The notes beneath the pieces were generated by a model. That model saw only the letters and a program-made list of their open reading frames with translations. It was not told where the DNA came from and searched no databases. This document shows positions 1 to 7,940 of a stretch of 7,940 nt of DNA, one piece after another. Source of the stretch: a virus. Its lineage: Duplodnaviria; Heunggongvirae; Uroviricota; Caudoviricetes. Numbering within the stretch: the first letter of the stretch is position 1; each line of letters opens with the position of its first letter. The stretch lies in the IMG/VR virus record IMGVR_UViG_2778261527_000012; one strand, given 5' to 3'. A program made the position numbers and the translations under genes.

Positions 1-543
1 ATCAAACGACGATGTGGTTTTCGTCCCCAAATCCGTACTGGATGCGCTGGCGCTGTGGGTATGCGATTTAATGCCGTCCTGTTCCTGAGACAATACGGCC
101 CGACCACTGGCAGGTTTGCCCTTAATCGTCCAGCCACGCATATCAGGGATCACGCCTGACGGATAAGCCGCTGCAAGTTTCGGGTATGCAGATTTGTCAA
201 AAGTCTGCCCCTGCATCAGGGCATAGCCAGACGGAACGGTATCTGATGGCCACGGGATTGGTGCACCGACTGGATAAAACTCTGCAGGAGGATGAGCCGA
301 GGTGTAAAGCTGCGCCCACGGCGACCAGTTTGCGTCGGTCGTATCCCGTCGTGAACGAATAAATGCCGGAGCATGAGCACCGCTTGTACCACTCCAGCCG
401 ATGAGTAACTCACCTTCGCCAACGGCTGTCATCCCTTTCAGGTGAATGATATTTCCATACGCTGTTGGATATCCGTTGTTATACACCTCGTATAAGTCAG
501 AACTTTGTCCGGTCGCCCGTGAGTCAGAATAAAGGCGCAAAAA
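1..543 (-). pseudogene. Side tail fibre protein fragment (lambda Stf / StfR-like), 5'-truncated; continues beyond window start
   Basis: The minus-strand frame is open from 543 to 1, so it is absent from the ORF track because it has no stop in the window. It translates to ...[157 protein letters not shown], which matches my recollection of the distal part of lambda-type side tail fibre proteins (PIPWPSD...[34 protein letters not shown]). An in-frame TGA at 546..544 lies immediately upstream and there is no RBS-preceded start (only TTG 540, GTG 486, ATG 432), whereas intact Stf proteins have several hundred residues N-terminal to this region. The 68-aa ORF 216..422 in the track is an alternate frame of this region. 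Confidence 0.6.
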
Positions 544-546
544 TCA

Positions 547-1335
547 TCACGCATATTCCTCCTCCCCGCCATGCATGATCTCCACCATGCGCTGCGTCAT
601 TCGGACAAATCCATTTTCAATAGCCTGCTGATAATCAATGATCACCAGCGCCGACTCCTCGAAAAGGCACTGAATTTCAGCGGGGGCATGAGCGTAATAG
701 TCCGCAATTCTGCTGAAATTAAACACTGTGTGACGTTCTGCCGCACACAGGAGGAATTTCTCAATATCAGGATCAAGGGACGCCGAACGTATCCGGCTGA
801 TCAGCTCCTGAGTTTTCGTATCGTCGTACAGTTCACTGATATCCGGTTTACCGCCCGACGGCTCATAAACAGGCGTATCAATTTTCGTCGTATACGGCTC
901 CTCCTCATTTCCTGTACCGGGCAAAACATCCGTCAACAGTTCATCAATTTCTGTCGGGATGAAGCCTGTCAGGGAGACATCAAAATCAGCATTGATTAGG
1001 TCCGACAGCTCCATCCGCAACAGATCTTCATCCCAGCCAGCATTCATCGGCAGGCGATTATCTGCCAGGCGGTACGCCTTTTTCTGCTCATCCGTCAGGC
1101 CAGACAGAACAATGACCGGAACAGAATCCATTTTGAGCATTTCAGCCGCCATAACACGACCGTGACCCGCAATAATTTCGCCCTTTTCGTCAATCAGCAC
1201 CGGATTAGTCCAGCCGAATTGCTTAATACTTTCTACCAGTTGTGCCACCTGCTCAGTACTGTGCGTCCTGGCATTGTGCGCATACGGTGACAATTCTTGT
1301 AATGGGCGATAGACTATCTTTAATTTCTCGCTCAT
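547..1335 (-). CDS. ParB-like nuclease domain protein (ParB N-terminal / sulfiredoxin-fold), 262 aa
   Basis: Complete ORF with ATG start and a weak AAGG Shine-Dalgarno 5 nt upstream. The N-terminal ~95 aa follow the ParB N-terminal domain pattern (YRPLQELSPYAHNAR ... IIAGHGRVMAA ... LADNRL; GxGR-type motif), followed by an acidic C-terminal half. The gene ends in tandem stops TGA-TGA (549..544). Such genes usually sit just upstream of terminase genes in lambdoid phages. Confidence 0.85.
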   Translation of the reverse strand: MSEKLKIVYRPLQELSPYAHNARTHSTEQVAQLVESIKQFGWTNPVLIDEKGEIIAGHGRVMAAEMLKMDSVPVIVLSGLTDEQKKAYRLADNRLPMNAGWDEDLLRMELSDLINADFDVSLTGFIPTEIDELLTDVLPGTGNEEEPYTTKIDTPVYEPSGGKPDISELYDDTKTQELISRIRSASLDPDIEKFLLCAAERHTVFNFSRIADYYAHAPAEIQCLFEESALVIIDYQQAIENGFVRMTQRMVEIMHGGEEEYA

Positions 1336-1349
1336 ACAGCCTTGCTTTA

Positions 1350-1386
1350 TGAATAAAACGCACCCCAGCAGCCAGTGCTACTGGGG
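1350..1386 (-). terminator. Possible intrinsic terminator between trkG and the ParB-like gene
   Basis: Minus-strand RNA would form CCCCAG-(12 nt)-CTGGGG followed by GCGTTTTATT. The stem is imperfect, the loop long and the T-tract interrupted, so this is weak. Confidence 0.25.
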
Positions 1387-1472
1387 GCGGAGGTGTTGCT
1401 GGTAAAGTTAGGTATTGGATCAATGAGTGAGTCAACATAATATTAAACTCACAATTATAAATCAGCCATATA

Positions 1473-2930
1473 TTAGGAGCGCCAAAAAAAACCTGAAAAC
1501 AATATAATAACAGGATAAATTTCAAGGCGACCAAGAATCATAGCTATGCACATTAAATATTTTGCAATGTCATTAAGCACTCCGAATGACGATGCAGTAG
1601 CCCCAAAACCTAATCCCATATTATTAATACATGCAGCCACTGTTGCAAATGATGTAAGAAAATCATATCCCATACCATTTAACACCAGTATAAAAAACAC
1701 CGTGAAGAGAGTATAAAGAAAAAAGAAACTCCATACAGACCTCATTACACGATCTGTAACTATCTTCCCTCCTACATTTACACTTAACAACGCTCTGGGA
1801 TGAGAAAGTTGATTTATCTCGTGTTTGCTTTGTTTGAAAAGTATAAGAAATCGAAGTGACTTAATTCCACCACAGGTTGAACCGATACATCCCCCAAAGA
1901 AACTTGACAACAGCAAAAACACTATCGTGTGCGTGGGCCAGTTTGCATAATCCTGCGTAGCTAAACCATTATCAGTGAGCATGGAGCTGGCAAGAAAAAA
2001 CGAATGAATAAAACTTCCATGCAAGTCATACATACCTATATGCCAGACCTGGAAAGAGGTAACAATGATCACCCCTAAGGCTATTAACAGAAAGAAACGA
2101 AGTTCAATATCTCTGATTAAAGGTTTTATCGTTTTTCTGCTAATAACAATATACCAAAGAGTGAAGTTGAAAGCCGATAGCAGGGAAAAAGAACCAGCCA
2201 CCAGCTCAACCAAATAGTTATTAAAATATCCGATACTCTCGCTATGAGTTGAGAAACCACCAAGCGAAACTGTGGAAATCCCGTGACAAATAGCATCAAA
2301 CAAAGACATTCCTGCAAGTCTATAACAGACAATACAAGCAATACCTAATAAAGAATAAGTTATCCACAGTGTCCGTGACGTATCGGCCAGGCGGGGAGTG
2401 AGTTTGTCATCCTTAAATGGCCCCGGCATTTCTGACTGATAAAGCTTTGCACCACCAATACCCAATAATGGCAATACAGCAACCGCCAGAACAATAACTC
2501 CTAAACCACCTATAAAATTTAACTGTGACCGATAGTACAAATATGCCCGAGGTAATGAACTAACATCATCAATTACAGTTGCTCCTGTTGTTGTTATTCC
2601 AGAAACCCCTTCAAACAGAGCATCAATGAACGTTAAATTAAGTTCTGAGTCAATCCATAAAGGGAATGCACTAATAACAGAAAACAAAATCCAAAACATT
2701 ACAATTATAATAAACCCATCACGGGTACGTAATTGAATGCCAGATTTCTTAGTTGTATACCACGCTCCGCCACCAATGCAAAAAAATATAACGAAAGTTA
2801 TAAAGAAAACGAACAGGCTTTTTTCTTTATAAAACAATGCTACAACCATTGGTGGCAACATTGAAAGACTATAGAGCCAAACCAAGAACCCACACATATG
2901 AGTAACAACTCTTACATGAGATGTATTCAT
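1473..2930 (-). CDS. trkG: TrkG/TrkH-family potassium uptake membrane protein (485 aa from MNTSHVRV)
   Basis: Long multi-span hydrophobic ORF with repeated glycine-rich selectivity-filter-like segments (GVSGITTTGATV, LGGFSTHS, GGCIGSTCGGIK, NMGLGFGATAS) typical of TrkH/KtrB transporters. It is near-identical to what I recall of E. coli Rac-prophage TrkG, which begins MNTSHVRVVTHMCGFLVW. The ORF track starts 6 codons earlier (ATG 2948), whose AAGGTGG motif is about 14 nt upstream; start choice is uncertain. The gene is visibly more AT-rich than its neighbours. Confidence 0.93.
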   Translation of the reverse strand: MNTSHVRVVTHMCGFLVWLYSLSMLPPMVVALFYKEKSLFVFFITFVIFFCIGGGAWYTTKKSGIQLRTRDGFIIIVMFWILFSVISAFPLWIDSELNLTFIDALFEGVSGITTTGATVIDDVSSLPRAYLYYRSQLNFIGGLGVIVLAVAVLPLLGIGGAKLYQSEMPGPFKDDKLTPRLADTSRTLWITYSLLGIACIVCYRLAGMSLFDAICHGISTVSLGGFSTHSESIGYFNNYLVELVAGSFSLLSAFNFTLWYIVISRKTIKPLIRDIELRFFLLIALGVIIVTSFQVWHIGMYDLHGSFIHSFFLASSMLTDNGLATQDYANWPTHTIVFLLLSSFFGGCIGSTCGGIKSLRFLILFKQSKHEINQLSHPRALLSVNVGGKIVTDRVMRSVWSFFFLYTLFTVFFILVLNGMGYDFLTSFATVAACINNMGLGFGATASSFGVLNDIAKYLMCIAMILGRLEIYPVIILFSGFFWRS

Positions 2931-3067
2931 ATCTAAATATTCTTTCAATTATAACCACCTTGCTGCAATATTATGATTATACTGTATAAAATTTAACTCC
3001 TCTTAGATCTTACTTCACTGTTCCTTATGAAACAATCATCAAAATGAATCATATTGTAGTTAAGATT

Positions 3068-3532
3068 TTACTTTAAACACTGCTCGGTTATGTATTGCTG
3101 AGCACCTTCAAGTTGGGCCTGCATCATTACCAGTCGTTCCCGGAGGGTGAAATAATCCCGTTCAGCGGTGTCTGCCAGTCGGGGGGAGGCTGCATTATCC
3201 ACGCCGGAGGCGGTGGTGGCTTCACGCACTGACTGACAGACTGCTTTGATGTGCAACCGACGACGACCAGCGGCAACATCATCACGCAGAGCATCATTTT
3301 CAGCTTTCGCATCAGCTAACTCCTTCGTGTATTTTGCATCGAGCGCAGCAACATCACGCTGACGCATCTGCATGTCAGTAATTGCCGCGTTCGCCAGCTT
3401 CAGTTCTCTGGCATTTTTGTCGCGCTGGGCTTTGTAGGTAATGGCGTTATCACGGTAATGATTAACAGCCCATGACAGGCAGACGATGATGCAGATAACC
3501 AGAGCGGAGATAATCGCGGTTACTCTGTTCAT
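3068..3532 (-). CDS. Rz: Rz i-spanin (inner-membrane spanin subunit), 154 aa
   Basis: [102 protein letters not shown]... is near-identical to lambda Rz as I recall it: N-terminal TM anchor followed by a coiled-coil periplasmic domain. The ATG at 3532..3530 overlaps the R stop in an ATGA arrangement. The track's GTG start at 3544 is an upstream extension. Confidence 0.92.
3127..3312 (-). CDS. Rz1: Rz1 o-spanin (outer-membrane lipoprotein spanin subunit), 61 aa, embedded in Rz in the +1 frame
   Basis: [57 protein letters not shown]... has a lipoprotein signal peptide with lipobox VVGC and a proline-rich mature part, near-identical to lambda Rz1. It lies entirely inside Rz in another frame, the classic embedded spanin arrangement. 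Confidence 0.9.
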
Positions 3533-4026
3533 TGCTGACCCCACAAACAGATTTCACGCTCAATCTCACGACGAGTCATGAGACCTTTCCATTGCTTACC
3601 GCCAGCATATGTCCAGCGACGTAGCTGATCACATGCGCCTTTGATATCGCCCTGGTTTATTTTGCGAAGAAGCGTCGATGTTCTGAAATTGCCAGCACCC
3701 ACGTTGTAAACGAATGAGTAAAGAGCGCCGCGCGTTGTTTCCGGTATATCGACTTTGATGTACGGGTTAATTTGTCTGGCGACAGTGGCAAGGTCTTTAT
3801 TCAAGAGTGTTTTGCATTCTGCTTTGGTATACGTTTTACCGAGCATGATGTCTTTTCCTGTATGCCCGTGACATACAGTCCATACACCAACAATATCTTT
3901 GTATGGTATGTAGCTGACACCTTCCAGACCATCGTTACCACTTGGGCCAGTGATTAACACTGATGCTATAGCAATTGCTCCGCCACCAATAGCAGCAGCA
4001 ACGGCTTTTCGTAATGATGGAGGCAT
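3529..4026 (-). CDS. R: SAR endolysin (phage-21 R-type lysozyme with N-terminal signal-arrest-release domain), 165 aa
   Basis: The N-terminus [27 protein letters not shown] is a Gly/Ala-rich weakly hydrophobic SAR segment, followed by a T4-lysozyme-like catalytic region ([24 protein letters not shown]; E-x8-D-x5-T pattern). The sequence matches my recollection of phage 21 R almost residue for residue. Its start overlaps the S stop (TAATG at 4028..4024). Confidence 0.93.
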
Positions 4027-4241
4027 TATTCACCTCTCGCAGCCTTGCGCTTATCTTCTTTAATCTTGAAATAAAGGTTTGTCAGGTACGTCAGCAGGCC
4101 AAATACCAGACTACCCAGCACACCGATTGCAGCCCACTGTGACGGAGTTACTCTATCGAGCAACTGTAAAAACCAGTAGCCAGCACTGCCTGCGGAGGTG
4201 CCGTAGGCAATGCCTGTTGAAATTTTGTCCATGGATTTCAT
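4026..4241 (-). CDS. S: Class II pinholin, phage-21 S-type, 71 aa, with dual-start motif (antiholin from M1, holin from M4)
   Basis: [71 protein letters not shown] has two TM segments and a charged C-terminus. The Met-Lys-Ser-Met dual start (ATG 4241 and ATG 4232) is as in S21. A GGAGGTGAGG Shine-Dalgarno lies 4-13 nt upstream of ATG 4241. The track's 90-aa version (start 4298) is a spurious upstream extension. Confidence 0.9.
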
Positions 4242-4340
4242 AGCCTCACCTCCGCACGGAACGGATGGCATAGTTATTATGTGTAGGCTTTCAGACACAT
4301 CAATCAGAGCCTTAATTGATATATATGCTGGAGACGATGC

Positions 4341-4367
4341 AATATAAAAAGCTCGCCGTAGCGAGCT
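4341..4367 (-). terminator. Rho-independent terminator downstream of the second TolA-like lipoprotein gene
   Basis: Minus-strand RNA: AGCUCGC-UACG-GCGAGCU (7-bp GC-rich stem, 4-nt loop) followed by UUUUUAUAUU. On the plus strand the hairpin is followed by TAATAAAAT, so it is effectively unidirectional for minus-strand transcripts. Confidence 0.6.
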
Positions 4368-4492
4368 AATAAAATGTATTTCTCTGATATTATGTTTATT
4401 TGTATTAGCTCAGACTTGACATCACAGGTTTCGTATATAGAACATCATCAAATCTGTCAGTTTGCTATGAATGAGATATAGTAATTGAAGAG

Positions 4493-4888
4493 CTAACCTC
4501 GCATGTCAAAGCCAGATTTCTGAAAATCTCTGTAGACTTCCGGATTGTTGAAGGCCGGAAATTTGGCTTTATGAGCTGCGGACTTTATCGCTTCGCAATA
4601 GGCTTTATCACCGTTACTGGTAGATATTTTTAACGCCGTGCCATCCTGAGAGAATTCCATATGCAACCTGCATTTTTTCCCTTTCCAGTTATGCGGCTCA
4701 TCAAGTTTGGCATTAATTGCAGCTCTGATTCCCCGCGCTTGCGCCCCCCATTCATCCTGATCATCCCAGCGTCCTGAACTGCAACTACCTGTAGCAGTAG
4801 TTTTGTGGCAATCTGAAGGGTGTAAAGGTGTGCATCCCGCAACAAAACCGACCCAAAAAGTCAACATAACGATTTTCTTTAATCCCAC
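4493..4888 (-). CDS. Lipoprotein with TolA C-terminal (domain III)-like domain, 131 aa (paralog 2, more divergent)
   Basis: GTG start preceded by a GAGGAG Shine-Dalgarno. Signal peptide MGLKKIVMLTFWVGFVAGC with lipobox VAG-C. The C-terminal ~80 aa (GIRAAINAKLDEPHNWKGKKCRLHMEFSQDGTALKISTSNGDKAYCEAIKSAAHKAKFPAFNNPEVYRDFQKSGFDM) align in pattern with the other paralog and with the C-terminus of TolA as I recall it, including the two conserved Cys. There is an extra Cys-rich linker (CTPLHPSDCHKTTATGSCSS). Confidence 0.7.
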   Translation of the reverse strand: MGLKKIVMLTFWVGFVAGCTPLHPSDCHKTTATGSCSSGRWDDQDEWGAQARGIRAAINAKLDEPHNWKGKKCRLHMEFSQDGTALKISTSNGDKAYCEAIKSAAHKAKFPAFNNPEVYRDFQKSGFDMRG

Positions 4889-5038
4889 TTCTTGCTCCTC
4901 AATCCATTAAAATCTCAGCAATAGTAGTTGTTACGTCCGCCACTGGCTCAGAGCTGACTATCCGCTAAATTTAGCTCAGTGCCGTAGCTGTGTCAGAACA
5001 AACCTAAGCCGAAACCGTTTATTACAAAACAATAAATA

Positions 5039-5467
5039 TCAGGGTTTAAAATCCAGCACCCCATTTTGAAATACTTTATATACTTCCGGCGAAGGGGGGG
5101 CAGGTATATCAGCATTCTTTATCGCATTCATCGCTTCACGACATAAATCGAGGTCTCCACTTTCTCTTTTAACCTCCAGTAGAAGGCCATTCGGGGCCAT
5201 ATGCATTCTCAGTGTACACTCTTTTCCTGAATACTTACTCGCATCCCCGAACTGTTTTTCGATGGCGCTCTTGATTTGATGGGCATACAGACGGATATCC
5301 TCACTAACATCAGAAGTACGTTCAGATGAACTCACATACTGTGTCTCTATTGCTTTATCGGAGTAATATGATGTACGGTCATGATAATTTGTCGATACAG
5401 CATCAGTGCACCCGATAATAATCCCACTAATAATCAACGTAAGAATTGATGCGCTACGAAAACCCAT
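5039..5467 (-). CDS. Lipoprotein with TolA C-terminal (domain III)-like domain, 142 aa (paralog 1)
   Basis: ATG start with a GAGGAAAA Shine-Dalgarno 5 nt upstream. Signal peptide MGFRSASILTLIISGIIIGC with lipobox IIG-C. The C-terminal domain YAHQIKSAIEKQFGDASKYSGKECTLRMHMAPNGLLLEVKRESGDLDLCREAMNAIKNADIPAPPSPEVYKVFQNGVLDFKP closely parallels the E. coli TolA C-terminus as I recall it (...YAGQIKSAIESKFYDASSYAGKTCTLRIKLAPDGMLLDIKPEGGDPALCQAALAAAKLAKIPKPPSQAVYEVFKNAPLDFKP). The identity is from memory and not computed. Confidence 0.8.
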   Translation of the reverse strand: MGFRSASILTLIISGIIIGCTDAVSTNYHDRTSYYSDKAIETQYVSSSERTSDVSEDIRLYAHQIKSAIEKQFGDASKYSGKECTLRMHMAPNGLLLEVKRESGDLDLCREAMNAIKNADIPAPPSPEVYKVFQNGVLDFKP

Positions 5468-5496
5468 TTTTCCTCACATATGTCATATAGTAAAGG

Positions 5497-5526
5497 ATTA
5501 TATATACCGTTGTTTTGGACGCTCAA
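5497..5526 (-). promoter_or_regulatory. Candidate sigma70 promoter for the TolA-like lipoprotein cassette
   Basis: Minus strand: TTGAGC (plus 5526..5521), an 18-nt spacer, then TATAAT (plus 5502..5497) within a TATATATAAT run, about 30 nt upstream of the lipoprotein-1 ATG. The 18-nt spacing is slightly long; alternative registers give 16-17 nt. Confidence 0.45.
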
Positions 5527-6055
5527 ACAGCGAATCAGATCAAATAAAACGCACATTTGTTAACATTTACACAAAGTCTGCGTGGGATATTCTGAAAGAA
5601 TATCCATAATGTGGAGAGAATCTATTGAAGTGCATGGTGCCGGGTGCCTCCCGGTGAACAAAATGTTCGTGATACCTGTCGGCGACAGAAAAGGTTAATG
5701 GTATCACCCCACCGCACAGGGGGATTCACCATGCAGGAGTTTTCTTAGCAAACTCACTGCGCGCCCGGCAACTCCCAACCACATAAAATGCGGAGTTTGT
5801 GGTATTTATGCATATAACTCGCAGGAATTATCTTAAAAAACTGATGTCGATCCGGATTAAAAAGAAGCAGGTCATCATCAGATGACTGGAAAAAAGGAAA
5901 ACAAAAAATACTCATCATACAGTTTTGATTGCAGGGATGAGCCTGCTATGCACAATATGCAGAATATAAGCAAGATAAAAATATGCAGGCATATTATTTC
6001 GGATTTTGTTATTAACACAACCTTTTTAATAATCATTTGGCATACAATAAACCAG

Positions 6056-6084
6056 CCCAAAAAGAACCGCCTAAACAGGCGGTT
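6056..6084 (-). terminator. Rho-independent terminator (minus-strand transcripts)
   Basis: Minus-strand RNA: AACCGCC-UGUUUA-GGCGGUU (7-bp stem) followed by CUUUUUGGG. The plus-strand reading lacks a T-tract. Confidence 0.6.
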
Positions 6085-6404
6085 GGTCAATACAAAGGAT
6101 GCTTCGTCTTTATTATAGTAATCTGAGGCGTCGGGTGTCTTGTATCAGACAACATATTGTCCCGCTAAACAGCGAATTACAAACCACCCTGCAATGATCT
6201 CTCATCTCATTTTATATGAGTTGACGACATCAGGATAACGCATCATCAGCCCCTGCCAAGAAATATCAAAACTCCCGCCAGCAATGTGTTATCACAATAT
6301 TGTAAAAAAAACACAGCACCGAAACTATAACTGGTCTCTGTTATAATTTGGAGCAGAAAGACCAGTTGCCCAACTAGCAGCATTCTCCCCTGCTTTCCTG
6401 ACGT

Positions 6405-6431
6405 AAAAAAACCGCATTAAGCGGTTTTTTT
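6405..6431. terminator. Symmetric bidirectional intrinsic terminator about 80 nt downstream of the Q stop (candidate tR'-type terminator)
   Basis: AAAAAAACCGC-ATTAA-GCGGTTTTTTT: a CCGC/GCGG stem flanked by A7 and T7, so either strand gives a hairpin followed by a 7-U tract. Confidence 0.65.
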
Positions 6432-6511
6432 ACGATGTCCATGTCTGCAATCCGCCTCGCGATACAGCTTTGCGAAGCATAGCAAAATTGAAGCAGTTTA
6501 TACGTAAGAAA

Positions 6512-7054
6512 TCAAGCCATTTTCTCAGCAAATGATTCACGCATGGGAATATATAGGGCATACTCAGCAACAGCTAACCAATTAGCAATCCGTTTTTCGC
6601 ATGTGCTAAAACACCACTCTGGGTGTGCATCATTTAGCAATTCAGCCATTTTGCGCTTAGTCATCCCCCGCCCTTCATAGCGTTGCCGGAGAATGCAAAT
6701 CAATCCTGGATGCTCTGCCAGCACCTCACTTATGACTCGATCAATACATAACGCCTCTGCATCAGTACAATGCGCCAGCCAGCTCTTTTGCTTGCCGTTG
6801 ATCATCTCTCGCAAAAACGCTTCCAGCTCAGCTTTCTCTATTCCCGCTTTTTTCATTCTGCGCAGGGCTTCATTAATGGCTGTTTTCGTCAGTTTTTTGG
6901 ATGCCAACAACTGATTGAACATATTCCCTGACCTGCCACCGCCAATATACGACCAGCGCCCCCACATACGTAGTTTTCCCTGAATCCAGACACTTTCCAG
7001 CGTGGTGAGGCGAAGGTGTTCTCCGCTTTTTCCTGTATTCGTTGGGTAAATCAT
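6512..7054 (-). CDS. Late-gene antitermination protein Q-like, 180 aa
   Basis: It is the last gene of the nin-type operon and directly precedes the terminator and lysis region, which is the canonical Q position in lambdoid genomes. Size is right and it has a C-terminal Cys cluster (HCTDAEALC ... WCFSTCEKR) compatible with a Zn-binding element. Its start overlaps the upstream gene's stop (ATGA at 7054..7051). The call rests on position plus general resemblance, not a verified alignment; which Q family (21, 82 or lambda type) is undetermined. Confidence 0.65.
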   Translation of the reverse strand: MIYPTNTGKSGEHLRLTTLESVWIQGKLRMWGRWSYIGGGRSGNMFNQLLASKKLTKTAINEALRRMKKAGIEKAELEAFLREMINGKQKSWLAHCTDAEALCIDRVISEVLAEHPGLICILRQRYEGRGMTKRKMAELLNDAHPEWCFSTCEKRIANWLAVAEYALYIPMRESFAEKMA

Positions 7055-7341
7055 AAATGACCTTTCTTTCTCCAGATTTCTTGTGTGCGAAAAACCCCTT
7101 CAGCATGCATCAGGCGCAGTTCTTCTTTGGTGTAATCGCTGGTTTTTACCCGCCCGTCGATTAGATCGTGGCATGAGCTACAGGCTATCGCCGCCTGCAT
7201 ATCGTGTGGTTTTGTCGCTGTTCCGCACGTCCCCGCCAGCCTGTAATGCGCCAGCACAGAGGTTTCGGGATTGTGATTGCAGTAGCCAGGGATTCTGATC
7301 TGGCACATCTGGCCTTTAGCCGCTTTACGTAAATTCACCAT
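7051..7341 (-). CDS. DUF1364 family protein (YbcO-like, putative Zn-binding nuclease), 96 aa
   Basis: MVNLRKAAKGQMCQIRIPGYCNHNPETSVLAHYRLAGTCGTATKPHDMQAAIACSSCHDLIDGR... closely resembles E. coli DLP12 YbcO as I recall it (CQVRIPGVCNGNPETSVLAH ... IACSACHD), with conserved Cys/His positions. It is translationally coupled on both sides (TAATG with the upstream gene, ATGA with Q). Confidence 0.8.
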   Translation of the reverse strand: MVNLRKAAKGQMCQIRIPGYCNHNPETSVLAHYRLAGTCGTATKPHDMQAAIACSSCHDLIDGRVKTSDYTKEELRLMHAEGVFRTQEIWRKKGHL

Positions 7342-7940
7342 TACGCAAACTCCAGTAGTTGTGCGGCCACATTTTCAACTTCCTCCTGAGAGGAGAATTT
7401 ACGAAACAGAATCCAGTTCCACAGCACATTCAGTACAGATTTATAAACCTGCTGAAACTCGACTTCGTCCATATTCGCAAAAGCGATGGATTTTGCCCGA
7501 CGCCCACGGCTACCGTCCGGATAAATATGCTCGGTGTAAAATCCGGCCTGAATGGTTACCCACTCGCGGAAAGCCTCAAACGACTTTAGCAACGCCGTAT
7601 CCCGGGTTCTACGAGTCGCAACGGTGTTAAGGTATTGCTCTGCGGCATCACTCAGGGCTGGCGTGTGTTCCCGACCAACTGATTCGCACAGGTAATCAAC
7701 GAAACCAGACAGCAGTTCTCGTTCGCGAGGCGTGATCGCCCCACCGACCGGAGTCCAGTAATCGAATCCCAGTTGCAGGAGTTTGAAAAAACGCTTGTGG
7801 AATGCGTAGTTACGCACACGCTTAAAGTCTGCGTGTATCCACTCACCTATTTTGATTTGATGCAGAAAATCGCAACTCTCCGGCGTCGCCGGGAGAAGTA
7901 AACCAGAAGAAGTTTGTTTGACCAGTTGTATATGCGCCAT
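7341..7940 (-). CDS. Lambdoid nin-region protein, probably DUF1367 family (YdfU-like), at least 199 aa
   Basis: Long ORF with typical E. coli codon usage whose stop overlaps the start of the DUF1364 gene. The ATG is formed by the last three bases of the window, so the true start may lie beyond the window. Family assignment is from recollection of gene order in Qin/Rac-type prophages, not from a verified alignment. Confidence 0.55.
   Translation of the reverse strand: MAHIQLVKQTSSGLLLPATPESCDFLHQIKIGEWIHADFKRVRNYAFHKRFFKLLQLGFDYWTPVGGAITPRERELLSGFVDYLCESVGREHTPALSDAAEQYLNTVATRRTRDTALLKSFEAFREWVTIQAGFYTEHIYPDGSRGRRAKSIAFANMDEVEFQQVYKSVLNVLWNWILFRKFSSQEEVENVAAQLLEFA

Follow-up and report, generated by a model that had tools for sequence, protein, structure and literature searches.

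A probable single 23.7-kb deletion joins ynaK-proximal sequence to the 3' part of the tail fibre gene in an Escherichia coli Rac-type prophage

The stretch of DNA analysed here (7,940 nt, referred to throughout as the window) places the end of the gene ynaK close beside part of a side tail fibre gene, stf, which raises the question of whether a deletion brought the two together and, if so, where its ends lie and how they were joined. All genes in the ORF list of the window lie on the minus strand and are read from 7940 toward 1 in transcription order. These ORFs, the Pfam assignments of the called genes and the way in which nearly or 100%-identical E. coli loci are annotated in RefSeq identify the window as the late region of a Rac-type lambdoid prophage from E. 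coli. The late-region synteny of this prophage type is present on the minus strand: a DUF1367 gene (7341-7940), a YbcO/DUF1364 gene (7051-7341), the gene of a Q-like DUF1133 protein (6512-7054), holin (4026-4241), RrrD lysozyme (3529-4026), Rz with an embedded Rz1 (3068-3544), trkG (1473-2930) and ynaK (547-1335), accompanied by two minus-strand genes with TolA-C domains (5039-5467 and 4493-4888). The cargo gene trkG, which matches PF02386 (TrkH), encodes a K+ transporter at its intact length of 485 aa and is a marker of Rac-type prophages. The product of ynaK is a full-length 262-aa protein with a ParB/Srx N-terminal domain: residues 23-90 match PF02195 (ParB_N) with 29.3 bits, above the gathering cut-off of 26.3, and its relatives carry ParB/Srx annotation in RefSeq. 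The Q-like gene, the lysis genes, trkG and ynaK are all intact ORFs in the window.

To locate the join, the window was compared with a 38-kb reference stretch (L004) of strain WP8-S17-ESBL-05 (NZ_AP022215.1), whose intact Rac-like prophage is about 55 kb long, lies at ttcA and carries intR, xisR, recET, immunity and replication genes and a cargo block. Window positions 493-7940 form a 100.0% one-piece match to strains S21, H14 and C2; on the ynaK side, S21 runs on into terminase, portal and capsid genes, and WP8-S17-ESBL-05 runs on into the entire head and tail module. Positions 1-495 match the stf gene of many strains at 100%, WP8-S17-ESBL-05 among them. A script placed window 1-495 at L004 3571-4065 and window 493-1500 at L004 27787-28794, on the same strand and with 0 mismatches, so that two pieces account for every base of window 1-1500 and leave a gap of 23,724 bp (L004 4066-27789). 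An earlier note, made from the sequence of the window, had proposed alignment to intact Rac-type prophages as a check on its reading of the locus as a large internal deletion, with the head-tail module missing and the regulatory, lysis and cargo genes kept; the alignment located the breakpoint, placed both flanks in the same orientation within one reference and upheld that reading, since both flanks are 100% identical to NZ_AP022215.1 and stand 23,724 bp apart in it. Because this intact reference is identical to both flanks, it fixes both breakpoints, the shared bases at the join and the set of lost genes exactly.

The deletion junction occupies positions 493-495, a 3-bp microhomology (TAA) common to both parents, with the stf parent matching through 495 and the ynaK-side parent matching from 493. 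The stf homology stops at 495, or at 499 if one mismatch is accepted, and the microhomology has an imperfect extension, TAA(C/G)TCA, in which 6 of 7 positions match. Microhomology of at least 3 bp was present in 5.3% of 200,000 random junctions between both regions (P = 0.053), so the TAA is suggestive rather than strong. No IS sequence, IS end, target duplication, filler or extra base was found at 493-495. The breakpoint had originally been placed at 540-550, about 50 nt from where the alignments put it, and a search there for microhomology or IS remnants had been suggested; microhomology does exist, at 493-495, and an IS remnant does not. Among 5,426 complete E. coli genomes, megablast returned no single-piece match for window 1-1500, and a 121-nt query centred on the scar likewise gave none; a junction 25-mer was not found in the GTDB species representatives. 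The population context of this junction, absent as it is from these complete genomes and representatives, is therefore thin.

Between ynaK and the join lies a short segment that belongs to neither ynaK nor stf. As the earlier note had stated, ynaK (ORF 547-1335, PF02195) ends in tandem stops: its last residues, EEEYA, are followed by TGA at 549-547 and by a second in-frame TGA at 546-544 (feature 544-549, minus strand). Both stops are native and identical in the intact prophages L003 and L004; they therefore do not belong to the scar. The next gene after ynaK in intact phages encodes a homologue of TAGT (TET-associated glycosyltransferase), whose intact 310-aa product matches PF20691 (TAGT) with E = 5.5e-35. 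Its ATG at 554-552 overlaps the ynaK stop (ATGCGTGATGA), a native arrangement kept in the window, and both TGAs lie within the TAGT reading frame. A 5' remnant of this gene, 20 codons plus 2 nt of 310, occupies 496-554 on the minus strand (identical to L004 27790-27848) and makes TAGT a third gene at the scar, truncated there and absent from the earlier reading. The join had been described as lacking both an intergenic spacer and a ribosome-binding site. Neither description survived the alignments: positions 496-554 are contiguous native sequence in every intact relative and belong to TAGT, and a Shine-Dalgarno sequence, GGAGGAGG, lies at 558-565 on the minus strand, inside the 3' end of ynaK and 3 nt upstream of the TAGT ATG, where it serves the TAGT gene and is native, as in L004. 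The run of the ynaK frame into stf was borne out in part, in that no stop interrupts this frame between 543 and base 1 and its distal part encodes tail-fibre sequence with a Collar domain, but positions 496-546 are native TAGT sequence and stf begins only at 495. The residues that the ynaK frame specifies over the remnant are an out-of-frame reading of TAGT and not Stf. That stf shares the frame of ynaK is a coincidence, with two stop codons between them, and a literal in-frame join of the ynaK stop at 547 to stf, without spacer, is refuted by the alignments, leaving it almost no probability.

On the other side of the join, positions 1-495 (minus strand) carry a 3' fragment of stf, from codon 722 to about codon 886 of 1023, that is 100% identical to L004 3571-4065. 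Beyond base 1 the gene goes on as far as its normal stop, and tfa comes after it. The protein encoded by 1-495 matches the Phage Tail Collar domain over residues 77-124 (PF07484, E = 6e-13), whereas the N-terminal domain PF08400, PF03406 and the fibre repeats are not encoded in the window, as they sit in the 721 deleted codons. Because the Collar is the sole Stf domain encoded there, the window holds an Stf fragment and not a tail-fibre gene. Two alternatives raised earlier did not hold. The module has not been rearranged in place, as stf reaches its normal stop, tfa comes next and no morphogenesis genes occur within 10 kb beyond base 1 of the window; nor is the stf-frame ORF a complete short protein, being an internal fragment of the 1023-aa gene.

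The join also creates a chimeric ORF of 38 aa (438-554, minus strand), composed of 21 TAGT residues and 17 out-of-frame stf residues and ending in a TGA at 440-438, which is probably translated from the native TAGT ribosome-binding site. Five nucleotides past its stop lies the ATG of Stf Met743 (430-432, minus strand), the first in-frame ATG of the retained fragment. Gene callers begin a 281-aa product at Met743, an internal methionine of the intact protein; its role as a start codon is a predicted one, and re-initiation there is conceivable. A consensus scan of the scar gave no convincing terminator or promoter. The C-terminal 302 codons of Stf that the scar leaves appear to lack a start signal.

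As annotated in RefSeq for the intact reference, 22 genes were lost in their entirety, beginning with lom and ending with the small gene adjoining the small terminase subunit. On the tail side these are lom, J, the tail assembly gene I, the C40 peptidase gene K, L, M, the tape measure gene, two small genes including ydaY, and the tail tube and tail terminator genes. Next, separating the tail terminator from the capsid gene, come five small genes annotated only as hypothetical (probably head-tail connectors), then the genes of a P22-type major capsid protein, DUF6651, a minor head protein and a DUF4055 portal, and those of the large and small terminase subunits together with one small gene; a scaffold-like protein is among the products of the lost interval. 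Both edge genes were cut: stf lost codons 1-721 of 1023 and kept its Collar-containing C-terminal 302 codons, and TAGT lost all but about 20 of 310 codons. A prophage with these losses would be unable to build virions.

The long arrangement appears to be the ancestral one. Both edge genes of the window are truncated forms of complete genes (TAGT, 310 aa; Stf, 1023 aa), the functional phages mEp460_ev081 and PhiR26_1 carry the stf breakpoint region uninterrupted, and an intact reference exists; taken together, these observations identify the window form as the product of a deletion. As both flanks are 100% identical to intact relatives, the event was probably recent. The same junction occurs elsewhere: gene calls in at least three NCBI assemblies (GCA_904810055.1, GCA_904809585.1 and GCA_904810445.1) include precisely the 38-aa product of the join. 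A search with a 44-aa version of the junction ORF found nothing useful. The junction-bearing contigs are 227-433 kb long and differ in their right-hand flanks, one of them carrying a 5.9-kb insertion; two junction loci differ from the window at 2 of 7,940 positions, and the loci from the junction-bearing assemblies extend as far as an MFS cargo gene. Recurrence of one junction in at least three assemblies with varied surroundings indicates an allele inherited within a lineage and not an artefact of assembly.

We also observed that a second position in stf is a recurrent breakpoint in lambdoid prophages. This site, termed S, lies at L004 4109/4110, between GCGCGG(T/C)TA and CCCGACC and 41-45 bp beyond the stf breakpoint of the window, and at least 18 different junctions, found in remnants of Rac, Qin and other lambdoid prophages, have one end there, exact to the nucleotide. 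Thus S is joined to J 7310 in PCP06171, to J 9738 in EC2001, to TAGT 27763 in MSHS 472 (L002), to TAGT 27372 in 2018-05-2CC, to ynaK 28209 in LR-64-1, to the 3' end of nohA in K-12 Qin, to sequence upstream of ynfO in WG5 and to a ClpP-like protease gene in VTB96926v; in FT130 the partner is stf 3712, and here a deletion within stf has retained the opposite side of S. A scan of IMG/VR with the 20-mer left of S returned 105 loci, of which 91 continue into intact stf after the TA and the other 14 show 12 different, unrelated sequences after S; the alignment ends of the 105 loci cluster at 4106-4115, and the following 550 bp contain none. In 8 of the 9 cases with a known intact partner, that partner has TA at the crossover, and the bases after the partner TA favour (A/C)CCG, a half-site of the near-palindrome CGGT-TA-CCCG. 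We found no link of S to Pin, an IS element, an att site or a strong hairpin: a DNA hairpin at S reaches only -6 kcal/mol over 81 nt, the terminal inverted repeats of a putative stfC-tfa-pin 'cassette' amount to a 6-mer that is not significant, and no inverted partner of S is present near pinR. Literature searches for an stf or nohA hot spot gave no paper describing S. A second fixed site, in nohA, was considered and proved to be spurious, an effect of taking K-12 for the reference, as the loci concerned carry an intact Nu1 and part of gene A.

The scar is very probably a single deletion of 23,724 bp inside an E. coli Rac-type lambdoid prophage; this confidence attaches to the simple deletion, and how its ends were joined is less certain. 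One breakpoint falls after TAGT codon 20, immediately 3' of ynaK, and the other at stf codon 722 of 1023, and the ends meet at the 3-bp TAA, with neither filler nor IS; they were probably brought together through RecA-independent illegitimate joining, be it microhomology-guided break repair or a template switch. Such illegitimate, microhomology-guided joining seems the best-supported mechanism, and the join appears to be neither site-specific nor IS-mediated. That the junction is instead an assembly chimera, built from collapsed repeats of prophage sequence, we regard as extremely unlikely. The stf C-terminal sequences are indeed repeated among the prophages of one genome (median 1, up to 6 places per genome), and the absence of the junction from all 5,426 complete E. 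coli genomes examined would fit an artefact, but the junction lies within those contigs of 227-433 kb from at least three assemblies, in differing surroundings, the TAGT-side sequence is not repeated, and recurrence at an identical 3-bp microhomology is not expected of a chimera. Action of a mobile element or a site-specific recombinase, whether adjacent deletion by an IS, the PinR invertase or a prophage integrase, is hardly more probable. IS elements are common in related scars (IS1, IS3, IS5-family and ISKpn26), yet an adjacent deletion mediated by one is contradicted by the junction, where no IS sequence or end and no additional base occurs. The gene pinR lies 1.6 kb beyond stf, and PinQ and PinR are reported to act on the pix sites of e14 (PMC12529663). 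A search for pix/gix-type sites (AAACC-NN-GGTTT) gave 0 matches in the 38-kb L004 stretch even with mismatches allowed, however, although the e14 pix sites were readily recovered from K-12; the counterpart of P1 cix is found in stf some 510 bp farther upstream. A prophage integrase is disfavoured in that the region adjoining the breakpoint bears no similarity to the Rac att core.

The more serious competitor to a one-step random deletion is an origin at S. The stf breakpoint of the window lies 41-45 bp from S, and only 27 bp separate its TAGT breakpoint from the site to which S is joined in MSHS 472; both were counted against a random deletion, as such closeness to S-type sites is unexpected of an independent random event. 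The scar could have come from S along two routes. Either a break at S was resected by 41 nt into stf and then joined to TAGT, or a deletion like that in MSHS 472, with S fused to TAGT 27763, came first and slippage from TAACTCA to TAAGTCA then took out another 69 bp, the latter as a two-step route in an unsampled background. In favour of such an origin, at least 18 different junctions use S and alignment ends cluster there, and a second scar, in KL53 (L020), ends 65 bp inside S. MSHS 472 keeps both copies of TAA(C/G)TCA 69 bp apart, and a deletion between them would yield exactly the junction of the window. In RecA-independent deletion, slippage between short repeats is far likelier over 69 bp than over 23.7 kb, which was counted for this origin as well. 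Against it, the alleles in the flanks of the window are those of the intact reference. Between 1 and 1500, 19 positions distinguish the window from MSHS 472, among them 429 and 507 (507 is 12 bp from the junction), and at every one of the 19 the window agrees with the intact reference rather than with the MSHS 472 lineage. Descent from the MSHS 472 allele itself is disfavoured by the SNPs at 429 and 507. No S-type junction in a background identical to the window was found among the 5,426 complete E. coli genomes, a search of JGI metagenomes for the MSHS-type junction gave one chance match only, and breakpoints other than S (4045 and 3917) occur within the same 300 bp. The stf side of the window ends at L004 4065 and not at GCGCGG(T/C)TA, which sets it apart from the S class; the sequence of S has been deleted and, as nothing of it is retained, the window bears no direct trace of S. 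On balance, the one-step deletion is the leading reading, and an origin of the scar at S, by either route, is possible and on the unlikely side. Slightly less likely again is the fuller proposal that the scar is the resected or trimmed product of a site-specific break at S, where a nuclease or recombinase repeatedly strips prophages of their virion module. If that were true, lambdoid prophages would have been stripped repeatedly, with Tfa, Pin and the C-terminal part of Stf left behind each time. A published study, in which adsorption of T2 was blocked by StfE2, a chimeric Stf protein, suggests that such a module can act in anti-phage defence (PMC12529663).

Set beside other defective prophages, the deletion allele of the window has close relatives but no exact counterpart among the complete genomes. 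The Rac prophage of K-12 (trkG-ynaK-ydaY-ynaA/tmpR-lomR-stfR-tfaR-pinR) belongs to the same prophage family, has the same late-region synteny and is likewise defective through loss of packaging and head genes downstream of ynaK. It arose, however, by two other deletions, which joined L004 28376 to 16818 and 15059 to 6690, so that in K-12 ynaK is cut to 87 aa; ydaY survives, as do part of the tape-measure gene, lomR (split by IS5) and stfR at full length. The window, in contrast, keeps the whole of ynaK together with the Q-like and lysis genes that K-12 lacks, and lost everything from TAGT through stf codon 721, probably in one step. The nohA-stfQ join of K-12 Qin resembles the scar in that a packaging gene is fused directly to about 320 aa from the C terminus of Stf, with tfa and pin next in line, the entire head-tail module is absent, and the retained stf is 97% identical to that of the window's prophage. 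Qin is nevertheless another prophage with a cos-type Nu1/nohA partner, and its breakpoint falls exactly at S (GCGCGGTTA followed directly by TATTCAC), 41 bp upstream of that in the window. Five Rac deletion alleles of natural E. coli (MSHS 472, 2018-05-2CC, EC2001, PCP06171 and LR-64-1) bring ynaK or its neighbourhood to within 0.1-0.7 kb of the same stf fragment and retain tfaR and pinR. They differ from the window in that their stf side ends at S and their partners are others, some of them keeping small J fragments.

Decay of prophages by deletion, with structural genes lost and cargo, regulatory and lysis genes kept, is well documented (PMC6379469). From grounded or defective prophages in general the window does not differ in kind, although its case is unusually clean, an intact parent-like reference 100% identical to both flanks being still in existence, and therein lies its practical value. 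The scar is ordinary, one more deletion allele of a well-studied defective prophage, and it explains why this Rac copy would form no particles although its lysis genes, trkG and ynaK are kept. The only surprising item is S, which lies outside the scar itself: a single dinucleotide in lambdoid stf that is the endpoint of many independent head-tail deletions, the nohA-stfQ junction of K-12 Qin included.

The stf genes of lambdoid prophages contain a deletion hot spot, S, that is exact to the nucleotide (...GCGCGG(T/C)TA|CCCGACC). S falls at position 4109/4110 of L004, the intact reference locus of WP8-S17-ESBL-05 (NZ_AP022215.1 2538108/9), and lies outside the window, 41 bp past the stf sequence kept at window position 495. 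Besides L004, the hot spot concerns L001, L002, L005, L012, L015, L017, L018, L019 and L029, as well as 14 IMG/VR loci. It has been joined to no fewer than 18 distinct partner sequences, the K-12 Qin nohA|stfQ junction among them, and most of the partners show TA at the crossover. None of the features looked for, namely a pix/cix site, an IS end, similarity to att or a strong hairpin, turned up to account for S. Separate IS insertions, which are independent events, lie on both sides of S, each no more than about 55 bp away: an IS3 element in L021, around L004 4053-4056 (4-bp overlap), and an IS5-family element in L013, around L004 4146-4154 (9-bp overlap).

On the other side of the scar, window 496-554 is the remnant of a gene that is intact at L004 26916-27848, a little upstream of the gene for the small terminase subunit. 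In intact Rac-like phages, this gene encodes a 310-aa homologue of TET-associated glycosyltransferases (PF20691, E = 5.5e-35) and is coupled in translation to the ParB/Srx gene ynaK, and the pair may form a DNA-modification module. RefSeq labels the glycosyltransferase homologue only as 'hypothetical' or 'GREB1-related'. For ynaK itself (window 547-1335), the RefSeq (PGAP) entry in many genomes is a 258-bp pseudogene 'missing C-terminus'. This holds even for genomes such as S21, whose ORF is intact over all 262 aa and matches that of the window at 100% identity, and is probably a result of using the truncated 87-aa K-12 protein as the naming reference.

Assemblies that carry the same scar differ elsewhere. 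One of them (GCA_904810445.1, contig CAJGHK010000003.1) has a 5.9-kb insertion at L008 3010-8923 that encodes a DarT/NADAR (DarTG-like) pair along with two tyrosine integrases. Window 1097-1631, which covers the 3' end of trkG and ynaK's 5' part, is repeated on both sides of this insertion as a 535-bp direct duplication. Two others diverge downstream of stf (L006 10968-13040 versus L007 10968-12497): one goes on, like Rac, to tfaR and pinR, while the other has a tfa that is 98% identical, followed by cybB and zinT in place of pinR. This difference suggests later recombination or inversion via a copy of tfa in another prophage.

In the window, two adjoining genes for TolA C-terminal-domain proteins (PF06519; 131 and 142 aa; window 4493-5467) separate the Q-like gene from the holin gene, whereas in MSHS 472 (L002) the same position is occupied by tRNA-Gly and tRNA-Thr genes.
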